Virus record (IMG/VR): IMGVR_UViG_3300048552_000127
DNA from: an uncultured virus (IMG/VR IMGVR_UViG_3300048552_000127)
Taxonomy: Duplodnaviria > Heunggongvirae > Uroviricota > Caudoviricetes
Strand: one strand, 5' to 3'
Length of the DNA: 64,000 nucleotides
Shown: positions 8,175-40,990 of the stretch, piece by piece
Layout of the letters: each line of letters starts with the position of its first letter
Numbering within the stretch: the first letter of the stretch is position 1
Translations under genes and position numbers: made by a program
The notes under the pieces: generated by a model
Database searches by the model: none
Seen by the model: the letters and a program-made list of their open reading frames with translations, nothing else
What the model was told of the DNA's origin: nothing

Positions 8175-8840
8175 ATGGTATTAGATTTAACAGGTGAAAT
8201 ATTCGGGAAACTAACTGTAGTAGGGGAGGACAAGGGAACTCCCAAAGGGTATAATTATTGGAGATGCGAGTGTGAATGTGGAGGTAAATCGAGTGTAAGG
8301 TCTAGTTATTTAAGAAGCGGACATACTAAGTCTTGTGGTTGCCTGAGAAGTACCGTAAGTAAAGAACTAAACACAACACACGGCTTAGCAGATAACCGTA
8401 TATACAACGTATACATAGGCATGAAAGCTAGGTGTTATAATAAGAATAGCGGCTCTTACCCCAACTACGGAGGAAGAGGAATTACCGTATGCCCCTATTG
8501 GTTAGAATCCTTTGAGAACTTTTATAATGATATAGGAGTAGATTATGAAGAAGGGCTGCAACTAGACAGAATAGACAATGATTTAGGGTATTCCAAAGAA
8601 AATTGTAGATGGGCTACACCCCAACAAAATCAAATGAATAAAGGATATAATATTAACGCATCAAGTAAATATAAAGGTGTTTCTTGGAACAAACGTAGTA
8701 CCAAATGGTTAGCTAAAATAAAGAAAAACGGAAAGGTACATTACATAGGAACATTCACCTTAGAAACCGAAGCCGCACTCGCCTACAACAAGAAAGCATT
8801 AGAACTCAACGGAGAATATGCTTACTTAAATAAAGTATAA
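8175..8840 (+). CDS. HNH homing endonuclease with C-terminal AP2-like domain
   Basis: WRCECECG, KSCGC, YGGRGITVC, LDRIDNDLGYSKENCRWAT, SKYKGVSW...AALAYN. Confidence 0.88.
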   Translation: MVLDLTGEIFGKLTVVGEDKGTPKGYNYWRCECECGGKSSVRSSYLRSGHTKSCGCLRSTVSKELNTTHGLADNRIYNVYIGMKARCYNKNSGSYPNYGGRGITVCPYWLESFENFYNDIGVDYEEGLQLDRIDNDLGYSKENCRWATPQQNQMNKGYNINASSKYKGVSWNKRSTKWLAKIKKNGKVHYIGTFTLETEAALAYNKKALELNGEYAYLNKV

Positions 8841-8847
8841 TCAACCA

Positions 8848-8876
8848 TTGACACACACCAAACATTAGAGTATAGT
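8848..8876 (+). promoter_or_regulatory. sigma70 promoter upstream of cassette array 1
   Basis: TTGACA-N17-TATAGT. Confidence 0.75.
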
Positions 8877-8904
8877 AGCTGTACATTAACTAGAGAGATA
8901 TAAT

Positions 8905-9126
8905 ATGACTACACAAGTTACAGTAAGTATAAACCAAAATATATGGTGGGATAATCACCAAGCATTAGTAGATGCTAAAGATAATGTATTAGATCTACTG
9001 GAAATGATAGACTGTCATAGTACATCAAAAATAGATAAGTGTATGCGAGATGTATATGAGAAAGAGATACGAACATTAAATAGCTTATTAGAGTATTCAA
9101 GTAATAACGGTGGTGTTCCTTTTTAG
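8905..9126 (+). CDS. Hypothetical protein
   Basis: 73 aa, RBS and promoter upstream. Confidence 0.65.
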   Translation: MTTQVTVSINQNIWWDNHQALVDAKDNVLDLLEMIDCHSTSKIDKCMRDVYEKEIRTLNSLLEYSSNNGGVPF

Positions 9127-9199
9127 GAGGGTATAATATGCTACAACAATTAAATGATACAATAGGCTCACATAAAGTGTTTGATTATGTTAAGGTGTA

Positions 9200-9238
9200 G
9201 GATAACCACAACCTTCGATTTGAAAGCGGTTGTTATGA
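9200..9238 (-). repeat. Truncated attC-like site
   Basis: GATAAC...ACAACC/GGTTGT...GTTATG, only about 38 bp. Confidence 0.45.
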
Positions 9239-9261
9239 TCTATTAATTAAGGAGAATATGT

Positions 9262-9450
9262 ATGTTTGATTCACTAAAAAGTTTAACTAAGGCAACGATA
9301 GGTGCGGTGGTTGAAACACCTTTAGCTGTAGCTGCTGATTTTGTCACACTAGGTGGCTCTATAACAGAAAGGGATGAGCCTTACACTACTACAGCAATCA
9401 AGAAAGTAGTAAAAAACGTAAGCGATTCTACTGAAAGCGATGAAACATAA
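9262..9450 (+). CDS. Cassette-borne hypothetical protein
   Basis: 62 aa, AAGGAG RBS; its stop TAA lies inside the ACATAAC core of the next attC. Confidence 0.75.
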   Translation: MFDSLKSLTKATIGAVVETPLAVAADFVTLGGSITERDEPYTTTAIKKVVKNVSDSTESDET

Positions 9451-9512
9451 CGTTGGTAACACAGGCAACTGAAGCGTAGCGGAAGTTGTCCTTGTGATTA
9501 CCCTTGTTATAC
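9445..9512 (-). repeat. attC site
   Basis: ACATAAC...GGTAACACAGGCAACT / AGTTGTCCTTGTGATTACC...GTTATAC; near-identical to 17696-17763. Confidence 0.85.
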
Positions 9513-9545
9513 AAAATTAAATTAATTAAATAAAAGGTAATTAAA

Positions 9546-9785
9546 ATGGAAAATAAAAAGTACTGGTATAAAATGGATAACGTAACAAACAGATTAGTAT
9601 TAGATATTGATGACTTAGCCAATAACAGAGATATAAGTGAGTCTGAACGTATAGGACAGTTAGATGTTATTATTAACAAAAGCCAAAAACTAAAGGAAGA
9701 GGTAGTGTCTACATATATTCATAAATTGCAAACACTAGCTAGACCTAATATTCCAGTTGGTAGTAATCCGTTAAGAGATGTATAA
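9546..9785 (+). CDS. Cassette-borne hypothetical protein
   Basis: 79 aa, AAGGT RBS; converges on 9789-10022. Confidence 0.6.
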   Translation: MENKKYWYKMDNVTNRLVLDIDDLANNRDISESERIGQLDVIINKSQKLKEEVVSTYIHKLQTLARPNIPVGSNPLRDV

Positions 9786-9788
9786 AGT

Positions 9789-10022
9789 TTATTTACAATA
9801 AACTGTAATAGTTTGATGGTGCTCTTTAACTATTGTATTACCTTCATCTATTTCTATAAGAGCGTGCTCTATTTTTGTAACTGTATAACTAAGATTCCAC
9901 TCATCATGGTTCTTCTGGTTGGTATAAGATATGAGTTTAATAGAGTCTCCTACATTAGGGACAGAATCTACTTTAGTATGATAGTGACCGTCTTTAGTAG
10001 TTTGTAAAGTAATATCTATCAT
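9789..10022 (-). CDS. Cassette-borne hypothetical protein (canonical orientation)
   Basis: 77 aa, AGGAGG RBS and TGnTATAAT upstream on the minus strand. Confidence 0.7.
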   Translation of the reverse strand: MIDITLQTTKDGHYHTKVDSVPNVGDSIKLISYTNQKNHDEWNLSYTVTKIEHALIEIDEGNTIVKEHHQTITVYCK

Positions 10023-10079
10023 GCTCCCTCCTAGGGATTATTAAAGGTTTTAGAATTATAACACTGTATTAGAAAAGAT

Positions 10080-10135
10080 TTATAACCTTGCGAGCAGCGG
10101 CGTTGCAAGCGTCCGACTGACTTGCGTTGTTATAT
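10080..10135 (-). repeat. attC site
   Basis: TTATAAC...GCGAGCAGCGGCG TTGCAAG CGTCCGACTGACTTGC...GTTATAT, imperfect hairpin with bulges on the right arm. Confidence 0.85.
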
Positions 10136-10149
10136 TAAGGAGGCAAGAT

Positions 10150-10323
10150 ATGGCTACAGAATTGAAAGTTAGACATTTGTATGATGGTATATATCAAGTA
10201 GTTGAGTTTGACCTAAGCGACGATGATCGCTACAAATACGAAGATGAAAGTGTTTTACACCAAGGCAGTATTGCTGATTGCGAGGCGTATATACGGCTGA
10301 AAAATAGTTATTTATTGGTGTAA
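10150..10323 (+). CDS. Cassette-borne hypothetical protein (57 aa, not in ORF track)
   Basis: AAGGAGG RBS; MATELKVRHLYDG...YIRLKNSYLLV* fills the cassette. Confidence 0.75.
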   Translation: MATELKVRHLYDGIYQVVEFDLSDDDRYKYEDESVLHQGSIADCEAYIRLKNSYLLV

Positions 10324-10405
10324 ATATAACCATCGTTTAATTTGCGGCGGTAGATAGTGAGAAAAACACGGCGGTTTAACCGTCGAATTGAAATTGTTGT
10401 TATAA
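10324..10405 (-). repeat. attC site
   Basis: ATATAAC...TTTAATTTGCGG...CCGTCGAATTGAAA...GTTATAA. Confidence 0.75.
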
Positions 10406-10424
10406 ATTATTTTGGAGACAAGAA

Positions 10425-10688
10425 ATGATAAAGCGGAAAAGAAATTATAAGAATGCGACACTTTGGCACAACGATGATGGTGAGTTTGGCGCAGCATGTG
10501 GATGGCTATTAAAGTGTGACAATGTATCTAATAGGCTAAGCACAGATGTTTTTTATGGTGCTATAGGCGTTAGCGGTATTCACTATAAGCTTGTTAAGGC
10601 TTTCGGAAGAAAAATAAGCGATAAAAATTCTCATGGTTATGAATGCTGGACGTTGTTCGGTCTTCTTTTTGAACCGATGGTTAATTGA
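10425..10688 (+). CDS. Cassette-borne hypothetical protein
   Basis: 87 aa, GGAG RBS, fills the space between two attC sites. Confidence 0.7.
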   Translation: MIKRKRNYKNATLWHNDDGEFGAACGWLLKCDNVSNRLSTDVFYGAIGVSGIHYKLVKAFGRKISDKNSHGYECWTLFGLLFEPMVN

Positions 10689-10689
10689 C

Positions 10690-10748
10690 TTATAACGCCA
10701 ACTTCAAAGGCAACGCTTTTTGTTGTCCTTTGTAAGTTCTTGTTATGT
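10690..10748 (-). repeat. attC site
   Basis: TTATAAC GCCAA CTTCAAAGGCAAC GCTTTTT GTTG(T)CCTTTG(T)AAG TTCTT GTTATGT. Confidence 0.88.
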
Positions 10749-10759
10749 TTTATTTATAG

Positions 10760-10790
10760 AAAAAGGCGTGTCAGCCTAACTGTTACACGC
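10760..10790 (-). terminator. Intrinsic terminator inside a cassette
   Basis: GCGTGT...ACACGC stem followed by a T-run on the minus strand. Confidence 0.6.
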
Positions 10791-10802
10791 AAGATTATGG
10801 TT

Positions 10803-10952
10803 TTACACTTTAGCTAGAAACAAAGTAACTCCTGTTGCTAGCATTAACGATACTACTGGATCAAACCCTGAGTTGCATAATGTAATGTACAACCCAGAGA
10901 ATGTACCCAAACGCAAGTGTAAATTGCCTTTAGTATTATTTGAGGTTTTCAA
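10803..10952 (-). CDS. Small hydrophobic peptide (49 aa, TTG start, not in ORF track)
   Basis: MKTSNNTKGNLHLRLGTFSGLYITLCNSGFDPVVSLMLATGVTLFLAKV; lies between a structured leader and a terminator. Confidence 0.45.
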   Translation of the reverse strand: MKTSNNTKGNLHLRLGTFSGLYITLCNSGFDPVVSLMLATGVTLFLAKV

Positions 10953-11088
10953 TACCTGACCTTCTTTTTAATACTTGTACAGAAGCCTCTTAATAGAGTC
11001 GGACACGTACGTTAAGGCTTTTGCCACCTATTCTAGGTTCACAGACGCTATGGTGGTGGCAACCCGACTGTAATTTTGCGTTTTTTAC

Positions 11089-11156
11089 ACATAACGCCGT
11101 AATTAGCGGCAAACGAAACGTAGTGTAGTTTGTCCGACTACATTACCTTGTTATAG
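11089..11156 (-). repeat. attC site
   Basis: Minus strand reads CTATAAC AAGGT AATGTAGTCGGACAAAC...GTTTGCCGCTAATT ACGGC GTTATGT, a classic attC top strand. Confidence 0.9.
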
Positions 11157-11161
11157 GTTTT

Positions 11162-11461
11162 TTATGTTTGAAATTTATGTTTGGATTCCATTGGTACTTT
11201 TTCTATTTCTTTGTCTTTGTGATCGTTCTGGTAATGATAAAGAATAATAGCAACAACTAGAGTTAGTATTGCAGATACTATTTTTCCAGAGTGGTTGTTG
11301 AAGAAACCAACAATAACTCTAACTATTTTAGCAGTCCAATGGTATTCCGTAATTAGGATTGGCATAACCTTAACATTAGGCATTTGAAGTTTATCAAATG
11401 TTTCAAGTCTGGAAGTACCTTGATACCATTTTTTGATTGATAGTAATAGTTTCTTAAACAT
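11162..11461 (-). CDS. Cassette-borne membrane protein (canonical orientation)
   Basis: 99 aa with hydrophobic helix IVSAILTLVVAIILY; flanked by GTTATAGGT / ACCTATAAC. Confidence 0.7.
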   Translation of the reverse strand: MFKKLLLSIKKWYQGTSRLETFDKLQMPNVKVMPILITEYHWTAKIVRVIVGFFNNHSGKIVSAILTLVVAIILYHYQNDHKDKEIEKVPMESKHKFQT

Positions 11462-11469
11462 GTTTGTAC

Positions 11470-11534
11470 CTATAACCCTGAAATAATTCGGGAGCGAGCT
11501 TGCGAGTGAATCGCAATTAATTTTGTTGTTATAT
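11470..11534 (-). repeat. attC site
   Basis: CTATAAC...AAATAATT...AATTAATTTT...GTTATAT. Confidence 0.7.
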
Positions 11535-11550
11535 TTTTAGGAGTGAGCGG

Positions 11551-11739
11551 ATGAGTGCATTACTTGAAGACTTAGAGGCAATGAGGGTAAAACTTGATGC
11601 TGCGATACGTTGGAATTTTGGTGTTATAGGAAGTGACCCCATCTGTAATCAGCGGATGGAAGATGTTAACAGGCTAGAGGATGTATTGAGGGTGACGCAG
11701 CCCGACGAATACGCAGAATATAAAAACAGGTACTATTGA
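11551..11739 (+). CDS. Cassette-borne hypothetical protein
   Basis: 62 aa, AGGAG RBS, fills the cassette. Confidence 0.72.
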   Translation: MSALLEDLEAMRVKLDAAIRWNFGVIGSDPICNQRMEDVNRLEDVLRVTQPDEYAEYKNRYY

Positions 11740-11799
11740 ATATAACCACCAAATAAGCAGCTACGCTTTTTGTAGTCTGCTTGATTTGACTTGTTATGT
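11740..11799 (-). repeat. attC site
   Basis: ATATAAC CACCA AATAAGCAGCTAC GCTTTTT GTAG(T)CTGCTT(G)ATT TGACTT GTTATGT, with canonical extrahelical T and G on the plus strand. Confidence 0.9.
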
Positions 11800-11828
11800 G
11801 AATTTTATAAGGTATAATTGGAGGATTA

Positions 11829-12146
11829 ATGAACAAATTACCTGATGAGGAAAACAAGATGTACGCTATTGCATTTGACTTAAAAGTAGCAGATTTAGAC
11901 ATACATTACCAAGGAAATAACTACCAAAATGCTTATGGAGAGATTAAGAAGTTTTTAGGTGGTGAAGGGTTTACTAGACAACAAGGTTCTGTATATTTTG
12001 GTGATTCCGATGCTGTAGATATGGTTAAGTGTGTCATGTCAGTGAACAAGATGAGTAGGGCGTTGCCTTGGTTTAAAGACTGTGTGACGGATATACGAAT
12101 GTTGAGGATTGAAGAGAATAGTGACTTAGCTCCTGCATTGGAGTAA
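11829..12146 (+). CDS. vapD: VapD family (Cas2-like fold) nuclease, cassette-borne
   Basis: MYAIAFDL...NAYGEIKKFL...GFTRQQGSVYFG...WFKDCVTDIRMLRIEENSDL matches the VapD family pattern. Confidence 0.88.
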   Translation: MNKLPDEENKMYAIAFDLKVADLDIHYQGNNYQNAYGEIKKFLGGEGFTRQQGSVYFGDSDAVDMVKCVMSVNKMSRALPWFKDCVTDIRMLRIEENSDLAPALE

Positions 12147-12147
12147 T

Positions 12148-12210
12148 ACACATAACACTGCAAAACAAAGGAATCCCTGTTATCAGTAAATATCGTGATA
12201 ACGAGGATTC
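12148..12210 (-). repeat. Array-terminal recombination site (attI-like or half attC)
   Basis: Core CACATAAC, then hairpin GGAATCC-CTGTTATCA...TGATAAC-GA-GGATTCC; first 36 bp repeated at 26925-26960. Confidence 0.6.
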
Positions 12211-12243
12211 CTGTATATCAAAACATTAAGAAGTACATATAAT

Positions 12244-12429
12244 ATGAAAAATACATGCTTTATTAAACATTCTGAAGGTTTCTTCTTTAAGGTGTACGGA
12301 TATGGTTTATGTGTTAATAATAGAGATACAACTAAGCCATTATTCAGTATTAGAAATGGATATAGAAAAGAATTAAGATTAGGTAAATGGGGAGTTCAAT
12401 TGTTGAAGCCTAGTAAGTATATAAAGTAA
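12244..12429 (+). CDS. Hypothetical protein
   Basis: 61 aa ORF. Confidence 0.55.
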   Translation: MKNTCFIKHSEGFFFKVYGYGLCVNNRDTTKPLFSIRNGYRKELRLGKWGVQLLKPSKYIK

Positions 12430-12445
12430 GAGGGGTAAATATACA

Positions 12446-12745
12446 ATGAAATTGAAAGATAACACAGAAGCTAAATTTGGAGATATAATACGTTGGAATT
12501 GTTGGGATAATGATGACTTCGTTACGTGGAATATGACAGGGATGTACACTAGGCAAGGTGTTATATATTTAGGAGGAAGGATTGACTTCGGCTTAGGTAT
12601 AGGGCAGATATTGGAAGTGGAAGAAGTTATAGAGGAATCAGAGAATAATGACCCTGATGACTGTGGAATAGTTAAAGTAGGTATTGCGACAGACTTGACT
12701 AGATATATTAATAAATATGAGATGAAAAAGGAGAGTGAAGATTAA
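12446..12745 (+). CDS. Hypothetical protein
   Basis: 99 aa, RBS, overlaps the nrdA start. Confidence 0.65.
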   Translation: MKLKDNTEAKFGDIIRWNCWDNDDFVTWNMTGMYTRQGVIYLGGRIDFGLGIGQILEVEEVIEESENNDPDDCGIVKVGIATDLTRYINKYEMKKESED

Positions 12746-15569
12746 AAATAGAGTAGAAGATTATTTAGGTATTACTATAGATTATAACAGAGATGCTTTG
12801 TTAAAAGAAAAAGCTAAGAAGATGTTAACAACAAAGGGTTTTTATAAGAGGTCAAATGAAGACAGCCCTCAGCAAACTTTAGCAAGAGGGTCTACATGTT
12901 ATTCCTTTGGAGATTATGAGTTTGCACAGAGGATTTATGAGTATTCATCAAAAGGTTATTTTACATTTGCATCTCCTGTATTGTCTACAGCTATGGAAGT
13001 GGATTGGCCTACTTTCAATAAAGATGAGTTTGAAGTTGCAGGAGATTGGCTGGAAGAGAATGTAACGCCAGAGGGATTACCAATTAGTTGTTTCTTATCT
13101 CATATCCCAGATAATAAAGTGGGACTTGTAGAAGGCCGTAAGGAGACAGCATGGCTTAGTATGATGGGAGGTGGTATTGGTATAGGAATGAATAATAGAA
13201 GCCCTGATGAGAAGTCTACAGGGGTTATGGCACACCTAAGAGGTTATGATGCAGATGCCCTAGCATATAAACAAACTTCTAGCCGACGAGGAAGCATTGC
13301 AGCGTACTTAGATATAGACCACCCTGAGATTAAGAATTTTATTAGTTGTCGTAACCCTGTAGGCGGGGATTCTAATAAAAAATGTTTTAACTTGAATAAT
13401 GCTGTATGTATCACTGACTCTTTTATGGAGAAAGTTATAAAAGGTGAGAAGTATGAGCTTGTAGATCCTAAACATGGTGCAACTGGTACTTTTCTTGATG
13501 CTAGAGAAGTCATGGAAGATATAAACCAGCAACGTTATGAAACTGGTGAACCTTATATAATGTTTAAAGATACGGTTAATAGGGGTATCCCTAAATGGAT
13601 TACTAAACCTACTTACCATGTATCGCAGAGTAATTTGTGTGTCGCACCTGATACTTTTATACTCACGGATAAAGGACATATCCAAATAGGTGACTTAGAA
13701 AATGAAACCGTTAATGTGTGGAATGGGGAGCAGTTCTCAGAGACTACGGTAATTAAAACATCTGAAAGTAGCAGTCTATTTAGGGTAGGTTTAAACTCTG
13801 GTCAAGAGTTGGATTGTACAGAATATCATAAGTTTTATGTACAAGAAGACTACGGGAAAGACCCTGTAATGAAATCTTACAACGAGCTAAAAATAGGGGA
13901 TAAATTAATTAAATCTAAATTGCCTGTAATACAAGGAGATAAATTTTTAACTAACGCCTACCAGAATGGTTTTTATACTGGAGATGGTTGTGAAGTAAAA
14001 GGGAAATCCCGTGTGTACTTCTATGGAGAGAAGAAGGAACTAGAGGCTTGGTTTGATTTAGAACAAAGAGTAGACCAACCTCAGTACGACAGGGTTTATG
14101 GCAATTGTTCTGGACTAATGCCTAAATTCTTTGTACCCTCCAGTGAGTATAGTGTAGACATAAGACTTACATGGTTGGCTGGATTACTAGACGCTGATGG
14201 TACTGTAGCTAGGAATGGAGATAATGAATCACTACAACTGGCATCTATAAATAAAGACTTCCTGCTAGAAGTCCAACTTATGTTACAAACACTGGGTGTT
14301 AATTCTAAAGTATGTTTTGCCCGTAAAGAAGGTAAGTATTTACTGCCAGCTAATGATGGCACTGGAGGACTTAAAGAATATAATTGCTCTGAAACTAATA
14401 GATTATTAATAAGCTCTACAGGCCTTTATCAGTTAACTTCACTAGGTTTAGACTGTGTTAGGTTAAAATGGGAGAATAAAAAGCCACAAAGATGTGCAGA
14501 GCAATTTTCTAAAGTGATATTTTTACAGGATTTAGAAACAAAATCTTCTACATACTGCTTTAAAGAAGAACTTAGAGGTATGGGTATTTTTAACGGTATC
14601 CTTACAGGTCAGTGTTCAGAGATAACACTAATGACATCTGAGAAAAGAACTGCTGTATGTTGTTTATCTAGTCTTAACTTAGATAAATATGACGAATGGA
14701 AAGATACAACTATAGTAGAAGATTTAGTCAGATTATTAGATAATGTATTAGAATATTTTATACGTCTAGCACCAAAAGAATTATATAGAGCTGTACATTC
14801 TGCTAGCCAAGAAAGAGCTATAGGGTTAGGCAACTTAGGCTTTCATTCATTCTTACAGAGAAAGAACATACCATTCGAGTCTGGTGGTTTTAATAGTGCA
14901 TCGCAGTGGGCGCATATATTAACGTCTACCATACAAGAAAGAGCTATTGCATCTTCTAAAGTATTAGCTGAAGAACGGGGAGAGCCAGAAGATTGTATTG
15001 GTTCTGGAATGAGGAATAGCCACCTTACAGCAACAGCCCCAAATGCTTCAAGTAGTGATTTCGTTGGTGTCAGTCCTAGTATAGAGCCTTGGAGTTCTAA
15101 TGCTATAAATACTGAAGGTAGGGCTGGAAGTTACCTCATTAAGAATCCACATTTAGAAGATGTATTAGAGAAGTTAGGATTAAATACAGATGAGATGTGG
15201 GATAGTATTATAAAGAATAATGGCTCTGTACAACACAGAGATGACTTATCAGGTGAGATTAAAAAAGTATATAAAACTGCATCTGAGATAGATCCAATGT
15301 GGGTGGTAGAGTTAGCAGCTTTAAGGCAACCTAATATTTGCCAAGCACAATCATTAAATATTTTTGTTACAGCTAATATTACAAAAGAAAAGATGATGGA
15401 TGTAGTAATTGCTGCTTGGAAAAAAGGTGTAAAGACGTTATACTATTGTAGAGCTGAACAAGCATCTAAGACAAACATAGGTAAAGGAGATAAAGCACCA
15501 TTAAACTCAATACCTGTAGAAAGTACATTCAAGGTGGACATAGAAGAGTGTCTTTCCTGTCATGGTTAA
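12735..15569 (+). CDS. nrdA: Ribonucleotide reductase class Ia alpha subunit, intein-containing
   Basis: FASPVL, LPISCF, GGGIG, ETGEPY, SNL/CSEI split by an intein, APNASSS, KTLYYCR, C-terminal CLSCHG. Confidence 0.96.
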   Translation: MKIKNRVEDYLGITIDYNRDALLKEKAKKMLTTKGFYKRSNEDSPQQTLARGSTCYSFGDYEFAQRIYEYSSKGYFTFASPVLSTAMEVDWPTFNKDEFEVAGDWLEENVTPEGLPISCFLSHIPDNKVGLVEGRKETAWLSMMGGGIGIGMNNRSPDEKSTGVMAHLRGYDADALAYKQTSSRRGSIAAYLDIDHPEIKNFISCRNPVGGDSNKKCFNLNNAVCITDSFMEKVIKGEKYELVDPKHGATGTFLDAREVMEDINQQRYETGEPYIMFKDTVNRGIPKWITKPTYHVSQSNLCVAPDTFILTDKGHIQIGDLENETVNVWNGEQFSETTVIKTSESSSLFRVGLNSGQELDCTEYHKFYVQEDYGKDPVMKSYNELKIGDKLIKSKLPVIQGDKFLTNAYQNGFYTGDGCEVKGKSRVYFYGEKKELEAWFDLEQRVDQPQYDRVYGNCSGLMPKFFVPSSEYSVDIRLTWLAGLLDADGTVARNGDNESLQLASINKDFLLEVQLMLQTLGVNSKVCFARKEGKYLLPANDGTGGLKEYNCSETNRLLISSTGLYQLTSLGLDCVRLKWENKKPQRCAEQFSKVIFLQDLETKSSTYCFKEELRGMGIFNGILTGQCSEITLMTSEKRTAVCCLSSLNLDKYDEWKDTTIVEDLVRLLDNVLEYFIRLAPKELYRAVHSASQERAIGLGNLGFHSFLQRKNIPFESGGFNSASQWAHILTSTIQERAIASSKVLAEERGEPEDCIGSGMRNSHLTATAPNASSSDFVGVSPSIEPWSSNAINTEGRAGSYLIKNPHLEDVLEKLGLNTDEMWDSIIKNNGSVQHRDDLSGEIKKVYKTASEIDPMWVVELAALRQPNICQAQSLNIFVTANITKEKMMDVVIAAWKKGVKTLYYCRAEQASKTNIGKGDKAPLNSIPVESTFKVDIEECLSCHG
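13638..14612 (+). mobile_element. Intein (325 aa) with LAGLIDADG endonuclease in nrdA
   Basis: Starts CVAPDTFILT after SNL; block B LDCTEYHKF; GFYTGDG and LAGLLDADG motifs; ends NGILTGQ before Cys+1. Confidence 0.93.
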
Positions 15570-15587
15570 TAAAATAAAAGGATAGTA

Positions 15588-16583
15588 ATGTCAGTATTTA
15601 AAGAAAGTGAAAGTTATAGACCGTTTCAGTACCCTTGGGCTACGGAGGCAGCACGTAAGCACTCTATTGATATGTTTTGGGACGTACACCAAGTGGAGTT
15701 ACAAGAAGATTTAAGACAATATAATTCTAAGGATGGACTGAAGACAGAGAATGTTAGCCATGAAGTAAATAAGAATATTATTGATAAAGTGCTATGCCTA
15801 TTTACTGAAATGGATAAGACCGTAGGTGGTTCTTATACTAAACTAATACCTCGTATAGGTAATAATGAAATAAGAAACCTCCTTATTACCTTTGTAGGGA
15901 GGGAAGTGGTACACCAACGAGCATACGCTTTATTAGCAGAGACTTTTGGTTTTAGTGATAGTGATTGGGTTATCTTCTCTGAGTATGTAGAGATGCAAGA
16001 TAAGTTAGATATTATGTCACAAGAGGGAGAATTAGAATCTAAACTGGATGACGCTAAACTTCTTGCTAAGATACTATTAGGAGAAGGTATTGGATTATTT
16101 GCTGCTTTCGCTTGCTTCTTGAATTACAAACGCCAAGGATTGCTAGTAGGTTTTAATGATGTCAATGCTTGGTCATTAGCAGATGAAGCATTTCATGTAG
16201 AGAACAACATGAGAGTTCTAGTCCACATACGAGAGGACTTATCTGAGGTTGAGAATATAGAGTTAGATAAGTATATTGTATCTCTGGCTGGAGGTTACGT
16301 TGATGCAGAGATAAAGTTTATTGATTTAGTATTCGAGCTAGGAGATCAAGAAGATTTAACTAAAGAGGACTTACAAGAGTATATCAGATATCTACATGAT
16401 TTACGACTATACCAATTAGACTTAATGGATTACACAGAAGTTAGAGTCAATCCTCTGAAATGGATGGAGTGGATGTTAGGAGCTAAGAAACATAGCAACT
16501 TCTTTGAAAAACGTGTGACTGATTATTCACATAATAAACTACAAGGCGAAGTAGATTACGCGAAGTATGTAATAACACCTTGA
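15588..16583 (+). CDS. nrdB: Ribonucleotide reductase beta subunit
   Basis: YRPFQYPW, REVVHQRAY, EGIGLF, DEAFH, NFFEKRVTDY. Confidence 0.95.
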   Translation: MSVFKESESYRPFQYPWATEAARKHSIDMFWDVHQVELQEDLRQYNSKDGLKTENVSHEVNKNIIDKVLCLFTEMDKTVGGSYTKLIPRIGNNEIRNLLITFVGREVVHQRAYALLAETFGFSDSDWVIFSEYVEMQDKLDIMSQEGELESKLDDAKLLAKILLGEGIGLFAAFACFLNYKRQGLLVGFNDVNAWSLADEAFHVENNMRVLVHIREDLSEVENIELDKYIVSLAGGYVDAEIKFIDLVFELGDQEDLTKEDLQEYIRYLHDLRLYQLDLMDYTEVRVNPLKWMEWMLGAKKHSNFFEKRVTDYSHNKLQGEVDYAKYVITP

Positions 16584-16608
16584 CATACAACACAAACTCA
16601 TATACAAT
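16580..16608 (+). promoter_or_regulatory. sigma70 promoter
   Basis: TTGACA-N17-TACAAT. Confidence 0.7.
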
Positions 16609-16639
16609 AACCTCTCAATATAATTATTAGAGATACATT

Positions 16640-16873
16640 ATGAGCAACATGACTGAGATGGAAATGTGTACCACTTACAGACGTAAAAATGATCTATGTA
16701 CAATATCATGTAAATTAGGATTATGGTCTGTGAGTGGTAAGTGTGGGTTAGCATTAATCAATGAAGCAGATCATTATTTCAAGCAATATAAAGAAGATGG
16801 CGAGTATAGCAGTATTATTGGTGGTAAAAGTGCTAGTGAAGTGTTAAGTGAATTTTTAAATAGGGATAAATAA
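16640..16873 (+). CDS. Hypothetical protein
   Basis: 77 aa after the promoter. Confidence 0.65.
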   Translation: MSNMTEMEMCTTYRRKNDLCTISCKLGLWSVSGKCGLALINEADHYFKQYKEDGEYSSIIGGKSASEVLSEFLNRDK

Positions 16874-17029
16874 TGCTGGAAGATTCACAAAGTTATAGGA
16901 AAAAGACTCTCGGATGCTGGGTTTTGGGAATGAAGTGGTTTCGAGTACGTGAAGATACCTACTGGGAGTATTTAGAGTTGAAGAGTCAAGGTTCGCCCAA
17001 AACTTATTGGATTAAAAAGATGGAGTATT

Positions 17030-17239
17030 ATGGGAATGATTAGTGTAACACAATCAGAACAAACAGATGGTATAATCAAGACAACTACATTCTCTTCATC
17101 AGCAGAGGAAGCCTCAAAGTTGCTTAATTTCATGGTAGCTTATGAGTGTGGGATGCACAGAAAATCCCTAACACCTGATGAAGAGTTTTGGTATAGAAAC
17201 TACATGGGTATTTCTAATCCCATAGAAGGAAATAAATAA
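17030..17239 (+). CDS. Hypothetical protein
   Basis: 69 aa, GGAG RBS, coupled to the endolysin start. Confidence 0.6.
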   Translation: MGMISVTQSEQTDGIIKTTTFSSSAEEASKLLNFMVAYECGMHRKSLTPDEEFWYRNYMGISNPIEGNK

Positions 17240-17649
17240 TGTATAAATTAAGCAAACGTTCACTATCAAACTTAGAAGGTGTTCATCCAGACTTAGTATC
17301 TGTAATTAAACGTGCAATAGAAATATCTCCATTAGACTTCGGAGTTAGCGAAGGTGTACGTACAGTGGAACGCCAGAAAGAGTTAGTAGCCCAGGGCAAG
17401 TCTACTACAATGAATAGTAAGCACATACCTAGAAGTTTTAAAGATACTGGGGAGGAGTATGGAGCTGCTGTAGATTTATTCGTATTAGTAAATGGTGAAG
17501 TATCTTGGGAGCATAAAGAGTTTAGGAAAGTTATACAAGCCGTATTCACTGCTGCTATAGAGCTAGGCGTTCAAGTGGAAGCTGGAGCATTATGGAGAAC
17601 ATTCTTAGATTCTCCTCATATTCAATTAAATATGAAGTATTACGGATAA
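17239..17649 (+). CDS. Endolysin, M15 family L-Ala-D-Glu peptidase (T5 lysin-like)
   Basis: LSKRSLSNLEGVHPDL, EGVRTVERQKELV, SKH...AVD, DSPHIQL zinc-peptidase motifs. Confidence 0.9.
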   Translation: MYKLSKRSLSNLEGVHPDLVSVIKRAIEISPLDFGVSEGVRTVERQKELVAQGKSTTMNSKHIPRSFKDTGEEYGAAVDLFVLVNGEVSWEHKEFRKVIQAVFTAAIELGVQVEAGALWRTFLDSPHIQLNMKYYG

Positions 17650-17664
17650 AGTTTAGAAAAAGGT

Positions 17665-17693
17665 TTGACATAACCTGAACACTATGTTATTAT
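17665..17693 (+). promoter_or_regulatory. sigma70 promoter abutting cassette array 2
   Basis: TTGACA-N17-TATTAT; the first attC core starts at 17696. Confidence 0.78.
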
Positions 17694-17695
17694 GT

Positions 17696-17763
17696 ATTTA
17701 ACGTTGGTAACACAGGCGACTGAAGCGAAGCGGAAGTTGTCCTTGTGATTACCCTTGTTATAC
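17696..17763 (-). repeat. attC site
   Basis: Two internal substitutions relative to 9445-9512. Confidence 0.85.
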
Positions 17764-17794
17764 CCAATTAAATTAATTAAAAAAGGTAAAGGTT

Positions 17795-18115
17795 ATGGAC
17801 AAAAAAAGTGCAAGTAGTTTTATGGACACTGTAGATGAATTAGATCTTGTATCTAATACTATTAAAGAGTCAGCTAAGTCTTTAGTCTGGCTTAGTTTCT
17901 ACGATGAGTCCGATGTGCTTAAAGAACTTAAAAAGTTGGGCTACAGTAATTTCCCATCTGTCCACCAACTCTTGGATAGTAATGGAGGATTGGAAATCGC
18001 AGGAAGTACAATTACTGGTAAACTTACTGTAGGCAAGGCTAACCTCGCTAGTAAGGTTCTCGCCGCACTTAGGGCAAATGTCAGCACTATCGAGCCTACT
18101 TTGAAACTCGTCTAA
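17795..18115 (+). CDS. Cassette-borne hypothetical protein (antisense-overlapping)
   Basis: 106 aa, AAGG RBS; overlaps the minus-strand ORF by 234 bp. Confidence 0.5.
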   Translation: MDKKSASSFMDTVDELDLVSNTIKESAKSLVWLSFYDESDVLKELKKLGYSNFPSVHQLLDSNGGLEIAGSTITGKLTVGKANLASKVLAALRANVSTIEPTLKLV

Positions 18116-18187
18116 TCTGGATGACATTTCATCGAATTTTTTAAACTTTGCTTCCATGTCTTTGAAGCGTTGCTCTATATTAGTCAT
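17882..18187 (-). CDS. Cassette-borne coiled-coil/zinc-ribbon protein (canonical orientation)
   Basis: CPKC...CTSC motif, AAGGA RBS. Confidence 0.65.
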   Translation of the reverse strand: MTNIEQRFKDMEAKFKKFDEMSSRLDEFQSRLDSADICPKCGENLTSEVSLAYSKFTSNCTSCDFQSSITIQELVDRWEITVAQLFKFFKHIGLIVETKPD

Positions 18188-18275
18188 AATTTTATTCCTT
18201 GAAATAGGGGTTAAATAAATTAAGTAAATATTAACATAGTAAAATTAAATACAATGATTGTTTATTGTGTTTTGG

Positions 18276-18336
18276 GTATAACCATTTAATAAACGAGCGA
18301 GCGGATGCGAAGTCCGCTTTAATTACGTTGTTATAA
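18276..18336 (-). repeat. attC site
   Basis: GTATAAC...TAATAAA...TTTAATTA CGTT GTTATAA. Confidence 0.7.
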
Positions 18337-18353
18337 CTTTACGGAGTTTTAAA

Positions 18354-18548
18354 ATGAGCAGTTTTCCGCAGCATGTAAAAAATATTTCAGATTTAGGTAC
18401 TATGGGCTTCGATGTTTCTGGCTGCTTAGAAGAAGATGGACAGGTTAGTATGGACTCGTGGAGTAATGATGACCTAGTAGATACTTTTTCTGAGGTTATT
18501 GATATTTTAAAGAGGCAAGGTTTCGAGGTAATGAAGCCTAAAGCCTAG
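18354..18548 (+). CDS. Cassette-borne hypothetical acidic protein
   Basis: 64 aa, GGAG RBS, fills the cassette. Confidence 0.7.
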   Translation: MSSFPQHVKNISDLGTMGFDVSGCLEEDGQVSMDSWSNDDLVDTFSEVIDILKRQGFEVMKPKA

Positions 18549-18557
18549 ATGAAGTTT

Positions 18558-18617
18558 TTATAACCACCAAATAAGTGGCTACGCTTTTTGTAGTACACTT
18601 AATCTAATTTGTTATAA
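18558..18617 (-). repeat. attC site
   Basis: TTATAACCACCAAATAAG..CTACGCTTTTTGTAGT..CTT...GTTATAA; same family as 11740-11799. Confidence 0.82.
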
Positions 18618-18744
18618 ATATTAATTAAATAAGGAATGTTATGAACAATAAAGAAATATACAGTATACTCTTAGAGATTAAAACTAAGATGATAAATATA
18701 CATAAACAATTAGAAGATAATAGGAAGATTAATGAGGGTGAGGT

Positions 18745-18927
18745 ATGAAACTACCCCTCCGAAACAACTTATATTGGATAATCAAGATTCAACGGAATAA
18801 TCCCGCGAATCTTTTTGCTATGTATAGTCCTCCCAGATTCCTAGCTGGAAATAAGATAAGATCATTTGAAGCATACCCTTGTAACAGATGGTGTAGTGGG
18901 TATATAAGTAGATTACCATACAGATAA
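18745..18927 (+). CDS. Hypothetical basic protein
   Basis: 60 aa, GAGG RBS. Confidence 0.5.
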   Translation: MKLPLRNNLYWIIKIQRNNPANLFAMYSPPRFLAGNKIRSFEAYPCNRWCSGYISRLPYR

Positions 18928-18960
18928 TAACAATAAAAATAAATAATAAGGAATAATAAT

Positions 18961-19218
18961 ATGCCAAGTTTAATATCAGGCGCACAAAGAGAAATGGAAT
19001 TTAGGAATTCATACAAAGAAGTAATTGCTAATCATGGCAAAGACTCTAAAGAATATAATACAATGTTAAAGAAGTATAATGCAGAAGTGGATTACTACCC
19101 TAAGATTAAGAAACATGAGGTGTATCTTCCCAGTATGAAAATACCTGATAGTAGGACTAATACACAATCAGTTATGTTCTTTTTAGAGGATAAATCGTGC
19201 GGGTGGGGGAGTGGTTGA
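18961..19218 (+). CDS. Hypothetical protein
   Basis: 85 aa, AAGGA RBS. Confidence 0.65.
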   Translation: MPSLISGAQREMEFRNSYKEVIANHGKDSKEYNTMLKKYNAEVDYYPKIKKHEVYLPSMKIPDSRTNTQSVMFFLEDKSCGWGSG

Positions 19219-40297: not shown

Positions 40298-40990
40298 ATG
40301 GGTAAGAAATTAGAATTAAAAGGTCAGACTTTTGGTAGGTTAACAGTTATTAAAGAAGAACCTGTAAGAAGTAATGATGGTAAAGTTAAGTGGTTTTGTA
40401 AATGCGACTGTGGTAATAATACAAGTACTACTGGTAAAGATCTAAAAAGTGGAGACACAAAGTCTTGTGGGTGTTTAGTAAAGGAGTGGGCTAGTAAGTC
40501 AGCCACAATAAGAAATACCACACATGGGTTGTGTGAACACCCTTTATACATTATATGGAGAGGTATGAGGGTTAGGTGTTATAAAAAGTGGAGCAAAAAC
40601 TATAAAAATTATGGAGATAGGGGTATAACAGTGTGTGACTCTTGGGAAGAGGATTTCATAAACTTCTACAACGATATGTTGTTGGGGTATAAGGAGGGGT
40701 TGCAATTAGATAGGGTAGATAATGATAAGGGTTATTATAAAGAGAATTGTAGGTGGGTGACTAACCAACAGAATCAGACGAATAAGGGATCAAAAATAGG
40801 GTCAACATCCAAGTATAAAGGTGTTTGTTGGTATAGAGGTGGTAATAGATGGTTAGCACAAATATATAAAGACGGTAAACATTATCACTTAGGTACATTC
40901 AAATGTGAACACGAAGCAGCCAAAGCTTACAACACTAAAGCATTGACACTCAACAGCGAATACGCTTACTTAAATAAAATAGAGGATTAG
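40298..40990 (+). CDS. HNH homing endonuclease with AP2-like domain
   Basis: Paralogue of 8175-8840: WFCKCDCG, KSCGC, LDRVDNDKGY, SKYKGV. Confidence 0.88.
   Translation: MGKKLELKGQTFGRLTVIKEEPVRSNDGKVKWFCKCDCGNNTSTTGKDLKSGDTKSCGCLVKEWASKSATIRNTTHGLCEHPLYIIWRGMRVRCYKKWSKNYKNYGDRGITVCDSWEEDFINFYNDMLLGYKEGLQLDRVDNDKGYYKENCRWVTNQQNQTNKGSKIGSTSKYKGVCWYRGGNRWLAQIYKDGKHYHLGTFKCEHEAAKAYNTKALTLNSEYAYLNKIED

Follow-up and report, generated by a model that had tools for sequence, protein, structure and literature searches.

Gene cassettes lying inverted relative to their attC sites in two integrase-less arrays of a virulent marine myovirus, and attC polarity in related viral and bacterial loci

Integrons are viewed as bacterial devices in which strand selectivity makes captured genes face the integron promoter Pc. 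The stretch of DNA analyzed here (hereafter the window: 64,000 nucleotides of IMG/VR record IMGVR_UViG_3300048552_000127, an uncultured member of the Caudoviricetes) carries ten attC-like hairpins, seven at 9447-11797 (array 1) and three at 17698-18615 (array 2), all on the plus strand, and most of the open reading frames (ORFs) between them lie on that same strand. The question raised by this locus is whether the cassettes of the phage are inverted relative to the polarity of their attC sites, and whether this is a peculiarity of one genome or a more general property. An initial annotation, made from the letters of the window, had described the cargo as mostly inverted and aligned with phage transcription; that observation proved correct and holds more generally than had been proposed, and cassettes that are reversed and read together with the phage genes are supported as a pattern. 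We consider it likely that the window contains two integrase-less cassette arrays (CALINs) of a virulent marine myovirus, and that their mirror polarity is general among phage-borne attC sites of this family.

These hairpins are true attC sites. The pattern TATAAC..TGTTAT matches seven times in the window where 1.82 matches are expected, a count reached in 0 of 100 shuffles, and six of the seven matches lie inside the two arrays, all on the plus strand. All ten sites have the invariant ends T-AAC (left) and TTGTTAT (right), and the terminal boxes TATAAC/GTTATA form the inverted repeat expected of attC, with a loose fit to RYYYAAC/GTTRRRY. The RNAalifold consensus of the ten sites has 21 pairs, 12 of them with compensatory changes. 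In an alignment of 81 sites from 51 sources, 90.9% of the cells were paired and the covariation score was 0.522, as against 0.10 or less with the partners slid, while the box pairs UA, AU, AU and CG were invariant in 81/81. A covariance model built from the window's own ten sites (R1) gave these sites 51-67 bits on the plus strand, a result that follows by construction, and 17 bits or less on their reverse strands and in the rest of the 64 kb. CALINs have been defined as two or more attC sites separated by less than 4 kb, sharing one strand and lacking a nearby intI, in the part of that work used here (PMC4889954). The window has seven plus three attC, all on the plus strand, with no integrase match in the 51 window ORFs scanned; intI, attI and Pc were likewise not found in the window.

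In array 1, the sites are S1 (9447-9510, R1 67 bits, its 3' arm having three unpaired bases more than its 5' arm), S2 (10082-10133, 65.5 bits, three bulges on the 3' arm), S3 (10326-10403, 51 bits, with a long variable loop and a right arm that reads by eye as CCG[T]CGAATT[G]AAA), S4 (10692-10746, 58 bits, with 3'-arm bulges T and T, 6 bp apart), S5 (11091-11154, 66.6 bits), the atypical S6 (11472-11532, 57.7 bits, with an extra insert in the 5' arm) and S7 (11742-11797, 63.3 bits). Array 2 consists of S9 (17698-17761, 61.2 bits), which is a repeat of S1, S10 (18278-18334, 56.8 bits) and S11 (18560-18615, 57.9 bits), which is 84% identical to S7. Two plus-strand elements to which R1 gives no match flank array 1: a short ATAAC...GTTAT hairpin (S0, 9203-9238), recognized by sequence and fold, marks the left edge, probably as a short recombination site, and a terminal ACATAAC box with a long hairpin (S8, 12151-12221) forms the right boundary, where attI or a secondary site would sit if the array were read on the top strand. 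An 86-nt block consisting of the attC and an AT-rich leader that ends in AAAGG is 94% identical between the arrays (9448-9533 and 17699-17784), and a similar leader also follows S11 (18616-18640); it may be a shared translation or promoter module travelling with the attC.

Four agreeing lines of sequence comparison, namely aadA1, bacterial arrays, published primers and natural breakpoints, indicate that the plus strand is the attC bottom strand. The initial annotation had reached the same assignment from the unpaired bases on the right arm of the plus-strand hairpins, and this feature is confirmed: S7 (11742) folds as GTAG[T]CTGCTT[G]ATTTG, and in the seven of ten sites whose outer stem can be walked in the minimum free energy (MFE) fold, the 3' arm carries two to five more unpaired bases than the 5' arm. 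The 3' arms of S4 and S7 run as five paired bases, T, six paired, T or G, and five paired, and the bottom-strand 3' arm of the aadA1 attC runs as six paired, T, six paired, G and three paired, with the same excess of unpaired bases. On plasmid R100, where intI1 is on the plus strand and aadA1 on the minus strand, R1 matched the aadA1 attC on the plus strand (33.8 bits, E 6.5e-7), and it gave no match to this attC on the coding strand of aadA1 at E up to 10. The R1 strand was also opposite the coding majority in 16/16 bacterial loci (see below). Because the strand marked by R1 opposes both aadA1 and these bacterial genes, the covariance-model check that the annotation had suggested places the bottom strand on plus. 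R1 further found four sites in Pseudoalteromonas phage H101 (38-55 bits) and three in Tetrasphaera phage TJE1. Its matched strands in H101 attC1 and in TJE1 attC1 and attC2 are, letter for letter, the forward primers of Table S3 of Qi et al. (PMC9892861), and that of H101 attC2 is the forward primer save for a few letters at the 5' end; the bottom-strand colour marking is lost in the text copy of the table, so this strand call rests on analogy with the aadA7 control, whose forward primer in the same table is the strand with T and G bulges on its 3' arm. According to section 3.4 of that study (Qi et al. 2023, PMC9892861), bottom strands were recombined better than top strands, H101-type sites included, and IntI1 recombined five of the six virulent-phage attC sites assayed. 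Finally, the natural breakpoints described below fall mostly in the left (5') box, as for a bottom-strand crossover.

Once plus is taken as the bottom strand, it is the strand of 7-8 of the roughly 11 cassette ORFs, and this majority is therefore inverted relative to the layout of a canonical cassette; read on the plus strand, every cassette consists of an attC followed by its cargo. The canonical arrangement, an ORF on the top strand pointing toward its own attC, is not what most of the cargo in the window shows. The ORFs listed by the initial annotation all exist, and its statement that most of the cargo is on the plus strand and co-directional with the phage genes was borne out. The plus-strand ORFs have AGGAG-like sequences 5-12 nt upstream, possibly including the one at 17795-18115.

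The generality of this arrangement can be judged from the survey of orientation that the annotation had called for. The bacterial scan gave at least 120 stretches, from which 80 loci were taken, and R1 confirmed 16 of the 80 with E no higher than 0.001, in Endozoicomonas, Brumicola, Paraglaciecola, Microbulbifer, Neptunomonas, Halieaceae and others; within 1.5 kb of these, the fraction of coding sequence on the R1 strand was 0.00-0.31. A first viral scan with the pattern of the bacterial scan gave at least 120 stretches and again 80 loci, of which R1 confirmed 18; after removal of two copies of H101, the coding majority was on the bottom strand in 14/16, the exceptions being L054 (0.00) and L059 (0.14). 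For a second viral scan, CATAAC was used in place of TATAAC, which gave at least 122 stretches, 80 loci and 18 confirmations. Three of these were removed, each sharing a contig with a locus already counted (L285 with L284, L345 with L344 and L286 with L054), and the coding majority was on the bottom strand in 12 of the 15 new loci, all but L355, L291 and L320. Combined, the bottom strand is the coding strand in 26/31 viral loci, some of whose contigs may be misclassified, compared with 0/16 bacterial loci (Fisher p = 1.4e-8). Individual sites gave a similar picture: a bottom-strand ORF of at least 45 amino acids (aa) ends at the attC at 46/62 viral and 3/27 bacterial sites, and a top-strand ORF does so at 21/62 viral and 21/27 bacterial sites.

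Among the ORFs of the first 16 viral loci are ribonucleotide reductase (RNR) together with an endolysin, DnaB helicases, NinB, single-stranded DNA-binding protein, primase, portal and holin, as well as methyltransferases and PAPS-reductase-like proteins. The latter two repeatedly adjoin viral attC sites (L039 1322-2104, L054 764-1483, L108 1840-3848), a recurrence that fits a DNA-modification or counter-restriction theme of phage cassettes. No attC was found at 12 viral loci that carry RNR neighbours at 56-64% identity, and R1 gave no match at E up to 0.01 in the seven whole viral records behind such loci or in HM1, P12002L, MW202573, Vibrio 166E36-1 and 1.101.O. As P12002L and MW202573 are published CALINs, R1 evidently misses other attC families.

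Whole cassettes have been swapped, lost and gained in nature between near-identical phages, mostly by crossover in the 5' TATAA|C (R') box. The clearest comparison is with the viral contig L006, whose flanks are 98-99.9% identical to the window. The identity breaks off right after the S1 CATAAC and is restored at ACACATAAC (12148), so that window positions 9452-12147 (2696 bases) are replaced by 1342 others, which hold three different attC (R1 40.7, 28.3 and 22.6 bits, all on plus) and three plus-strand ORFs. In array 2, whose L006 counterpart is headed by a near-copy of the S5 arms, L006 has an extra cassette after the S9 box, and the cassette 18283-18558 is precisely missing from both L006 and a contig of library X11, with the junction within the shared TATAAC. 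Differences between the window and L006 thus start and stop at the left box, directly after CATAAC or TATAAC, or at ACATAAC.

Part of the array is present in 20 public runs from 11 studies, and some seawater runs contain 91-98% of it. Contigs of four seawater runs (four studies) were mapped to 8800-19000, and they show which forms are joined, not how frequent these are. Among the joints listed (15 of 22), five go from left box to left box (10081 to 9447, 18276 to 10691, 18276 to 18559, 18277 to 9447 and 10331 to 9204). Contigs are also joined at 12148 and 12153, in the terminal box of S8, and at a loose end at 9451 the first attC of L006 is reproduced in two runs. Three runs contain the block 10123-10331 unchanged; in all of them one and the same foreign attC lies upstream, while the partner that follows differs from run to run: the 9204 hairpin, a novel attC or the 12148 terminal box. 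This behaviour fits a mobile unit consisting of an attC and the ORF that follows it. Population contigs also keep 9568-10081 with one to three differences and a shorter leader. The cassette-borne adenine DNA methyltransferase of L006 (5237-6052) is interrupted by an in-frame TGA and so falls into two ORFs, which could reflect a pseudogene, read-through or a sequencing error.

Several observations weigh against two CALINs with a generally mirrored polarity. Three of the ten sites (10326, 11472 and 18278) have a non-canonical MFE fold. The integrase scan, which took in every ORF longer than 255 aa in the 64-kb window, turned up no recombinase there for the arrays. The survey deals with a single attC family, found with a pattern taken from this window, and with mechanical ORF calls. 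Canonical polarity is present in 5/31 viral loci and in TJE1, and the reversal is therefore a strong bias and not a rule. Three of the listed joints go from right box to left box (10135 to 12153, 11155 to 18277 and 11799 to 10082), the S2 of the window is unlike the foreign attC found upstream of cargo 10150-10323 in three seawater runs, and the cargo 9568-10081 stands behind three different attC types, which left-box crossover alone leaves unexplained. The differing upstream attC and the right-to-left joints therefore imply crossovers beyond the left box, or other recombination. A distinct phage attC clade was considered and rejected, as viral and bacterial sites intermix: their mean identities are 0.57, 0.56 and 0.56, the nearest neighbours of viral attC are viral in 42 cases and bacterial in 11, and those of bacterial attC are viral in 15 and bacterial in 12. 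The 144 viral cargo ORFs had no relative in the 80 sampled bacterial loci either. With intermixed attC and no shared cargo, orientation is what supports a separate phage pool. The annotation's proposal of a phage-adapted pool of reverse cassettes read from phage promoters thus stands as far as the orientation and the promoter-like sites go; a separate attC clade, or a pool recognizable at the sequence level, is not supported.

The same observations bear on an alternative that we consider improbable. A founder effect combined with selection for expression would let the first insertion set the polarity by chance, after which only cargo co-oriented with the phage genes survives, with no phage-specific bias or pool. 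The intermixing of viral and bacterial attC and the five canonical viral loci agree with this, as does TJE1, which is canonical and yet has its ORFs co-oriented with the phage genes, and small bottom-strand ORFs also occur in a bacterial array, that of Endozoicomonas L160 (0.31 of the coding sequence on the bottom strand). Chance founding, however, does not lead one to expect a polarity shared by 26/31 viral loci (binomial p = 1.9e-4 relative to 50:50). The first 16 viral loci share no DNA beyond the attC save one weak 271-nt match, and shared descent therefore fails to explain the excess of one polarity. A bias of base composition, with GTT rarer than AAC on the sense strand, was also considered; a rough hand estimate gave about equal expectations and the idea was dropped.

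In T4-type phages, promoter-early stem-loops act as promoter-bearing modules, and it may be asked whether the hairpins of the window are mainly regulatory elements of the sense-strand RNA or DNA (terminators, processing sites or promoter modules), shuffled by recombination through homology or microhomology. In viral loci the hairpins are consistently oriented relative to transcription, and several attC are followed by the shared AT-rich leader with its ribosome-binding site. Paired with a TATAAT 16 nt downstream, the TTGTTA box of S7 is a promoter-like match of 10/12; TTGTTA-box matches are found at 11791 and 18328, and two attC sites score as terminator-like. However, promoter-like matches overall are not enriched (6 compared with 16.2 expected), most breakpoints fall in a 6-nt box that is too short for homologous recombination, and R1 also detects the aadA1 attC and bacterial arrays. 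Homologous H101 sites have moreover been recombined by IntI1 in the experiments reported in section 3.4 of Qi et al. (PMC9892861). We regard a mainly regulatory role as quite unlikely, and note that it is compatible with integrase-less cassette arrays of mirrored polarity, as the two can coexist.

Expression of the cargo would start from promoters outside the cassettes. A predicted sigma-70-like promoter, TTGACA-17-TATAGT, at 8848-8876 (+) reads into array 1, and another, TTGACA-17-TATTAT with TG, lies at 17665-17693 (+) directly 5' of array 2; each has 11/12 matches and was recognized by consensus only. Most cargo ORFs point the same way as the phage genes on either side and lie downstream of these predicted promoters. 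In RNA library X11 the contig of 10123-10331 has a depth of 568 and the RNR contig one of 40.7, but the contigs are strandless, DNA may be present and the ranking by depth is unsafe (the corresponding bins of DNA run X6 stand at 126 and 274), and this was dropped as evidence of transcription.

The cargo itself consists of small proteins, and searches of Pfam, PHROGs and NCBIfam gave two assignments, phrog_33676 and VapD/Cas2. The first (E 1.3e-13) belongs to the 62-aa ORF at 9262-9450 (+), which has AAGGAG upstream, ends with its stop codon inside the CATAAC box of S1 and is 93.5% identical in L006. The cassette 9511-10081 has one ORF per strand: an inverted one of 79 aa at 9546-9785 (+), whose start is possibly the ATG at 9573, and a canonical one of 77 aa at 9789-10022 (-), with a strong GGAGGGAG upstream. 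Inverted ORFs follow at 10150-10323 (+; 57 aa, AAGGAGG upstream), at 10425-10688 (+; 87 aa, with one weak viral relative, 45% identical over 43 aa, at a locus without attC) and, further along, at 11551-11739 (+; 62 aa, AGGAG upstream). Between them, the cassette body 10747-11090 lacks a convincing ORF, having a 32-aa TTG ORF on plus and, on minus, the 49-aa TTG ORF at 10803-10952, the reality of which is doubtful. The 99-aa ORF at 11162-11461 (-) is canonical and has a hydrophobic stretch. The last cassette of array 1 encodes an inverted 105-aa protein (11829-12146, +) for which Pfam (PF09827, 28.7 bits, cut-off 23.8), NCBIfam and structure support membership of the VapD/Cas2 superfamily; with 64.9 bits, under the NCBIfam VapD cut-off of 100, its status as a VapD equivalog is unsupported. 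Its match to VapD clusters in the Atlas has a score of 0.93 and a TM of 0.87, and its relatives at 11 viral loci (49-61% identity) have no attC nearby. In array 2, the 106-aa ORF at 17795-18115 (+) has seven non-self matches, to repeats in long proteins (best E 1.2e-10), and overlaps the 101-aa ORF at 17882-18187 (-), whose single match is a 99%-identical 82-aa copy; the two were searched with different tools, and likely at most one of them is real. An inverted ORF of 64 aa at 18354-18548 (+) has an AGGAG-like sequence upstream. Of the four minus-strand ORFs that the initial annotation had singled out as canonical, 9789 and 11162 can be accepted, while 10803 is doubtful and 17882 competes with 17795.

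The annotation had also expected plus-strand cargo to resemble phage genes and minus-strand cargo to resemble genes of bacterial integrons. This was not supported: the VapD/Cas2 protein, the best-characterized of the plus-strand cargo, has bacterial relatives in the Atlas. Its further suggestion, that minus-strand cassettes are transcribed in antisense from phage promoters, yielding RNA that silences host cassette-encoded defence genes, is very improbable: transcription from the plus-strand promoters would indeed cover the antisense of 9789-10022 and 11162-11461, but 9789-10022 matches nothing other than the window's own protein among 5.8 billion, 11162-11461 matches its own copy and one 79%-identical 79-aa metagenome protein with no related viral locus found, 17882-18187 has no relative beyond its near-copy, nothing ties these three to bacterial defence cassettes, and no host target was identified, the 144 viral cargo ORFs lacking relatives in the sampled bacterial loci.

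Returning to the two CALINs and their mirror polarity, we infer from sequence the integrase, the strand used in this phage and the transcription of the cargo. A host-encoded integron integrase would make the crossovers on single-stranded phage DNA, and phage promoters, in place of an integron Pc, would drive the cargo by read-through. A reverse cassette captured at a bacterial attI would lie antisense to Pc and be silent. Mirror polarity would then be a general property of phage-borne attC of this family, kept by selection or by insertion bias. The reversal has several possible reasons: phage genes would be silent when captured by a bacterial integron, the bottom strand might be more exposed on the non-template or lagging-template strand, or the hairpin might have a role at the RNA level. 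More speculatively, mirror arrays could be kept on purpose, as a cassette currency that is expressed by the phage but silent, hence harmless and storable, in the bacterium, with turnover perhaps sped by exposure of the recombinogenic strand as single-stranded DNA while the phage is transcribed or replicated, and with host integrases shuffling accessory and counter-defence genes (methyltransferases, VapD-like nucleases) during lytic infection; we offer this as a tentative extension that is more likely to be wrong than right.

Actively shuffled arrays of opposite polarity in virulent phages suggest a second, phage-side use of integron recombination. A phage cassette that reaches a bacterium in the usual way would be silent on arrival, which changes how phage-mediated cassette spread should be modelled. 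The strand of the attC compared with that of the gene also gives a simple signature for separating phage-adapted from bacterial cassettes.

The source of the window is a virulent (lytic) marine myovirus. Of the named phages, Pseudoalteromonas phage H101 is closest to it; the two terminases are 47.5% identical, and among 1337 phage records the H101 terminase is the top match. The 64 kb encode a large terminase, tail tape measure and baseplate proteins, DNA polymerase, a primase-helicase, a Dda-like helicase, both RNR subunits, thymidylate synthase and several HNH endonucleases. The nearest record (G001) spans 31-56 kb of the window, outside both arrays, and in near and distant searches of GenBank phages the array DNA at 9200-12250 had no match, while RNR matched Rheinheimera phages only. 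Several neighbouring genes vary in the population. In the large RNR subunit (12735-15569, 944 aa), the match to the family is split between residues 111-302 and 626-943; one seawater contig omits 13574-14648 and several have loose ends at 13539 and 13581, which gives the region of about 13540-14649 the look of an intein or a homing element whose insertion varies within the population. Array 1 is closely preceded by an HNH endonuclease ORF (8175-8840), and the segment 7757-8837 is swapped for a different 780-nt segment in L006; a second copy of the same PHROG family lies after the DNA polymerase (40298-40990), and both are probably mobile homing endonucleases. Contigs of two runs have a 31-nt deletion at 12353-12385, within the ORF at 12244-12429.

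Clusters of attC in virulent phages, and the activity of IntI1 on sites of H101 and TJE1, have been published (PMC9892861, in the sections used here); what appears to be new from the present comparison is the systematic mirror polarity, and full-text literature searches, with subscription journals outside their coverage, returned no account of attC polarity being reversed specifically in phages. Two lines of bacterial work come near it. Insertion of cassettes at non-att sites (attG) gives isolated cassettes and small CALINs in bacterial chromosomes (10.1101/2022.09.11.507474), and it is a possible integrase route into a genome without attI; at its right edge, array 1 has a bare ACATAAC box beside non-attC sequence. 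The accessible portions of that work concern bacterial chromosomes, with phages and polarity bias absent from them. In Vibrio, strand placement controls excision (PMC11023631), and the part of that study drawn on here deals with inversion of the whole array relative to replication, not with the orientation of ORFs within cassettes.

Among phages, H101 resembles the window in its attC family, in the small ORFs of unknown function between its sites and in the position of its array downstream of the RNR genes, as for array 2. Its annotated coding sequences AKO61033-61037 share a strand with the four attC bottom strands, and H101 is therefore inverted too; the arrangement of PH101 was called typical of bacterial arrays in the text available from Qi et al. 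(PMC9892861), and we find the reverse. Two of the H101 sites (L003 26526-26587 and 27928-27989) gave an identical 54-nt output with R1 scores of 38.3 and 41.2 bits, possibly by a coordinate slip. Unlike H101, the window carries its ten sites in two arrays, and for it there is direct evidence of turnover between near-identical phages. TJE1 is likewise a virulent phage with a CALIN, of three R1 sites and with a DNA methyltransferase in its cargo, but its arrangement is canonical, with the attC bottom strands on minus and orf1-3 on plus. The class 1 integron cassette aadA1 of R100 and the chromosomal arrays of marine Gammaproteobacteria share with the window the AAC/GTT boxes and, on the bottom-strand 3' arm, a T and a second bulge 6 bp apart; in both, crossover is at the bottom-strand 5' box, and one model detects both. 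The difference is in what the attC carries: bacterial cassettes have a top-strand ORF running into its own attC, whereas the window and most viral loci have a bottom-strand ORF that follows it.

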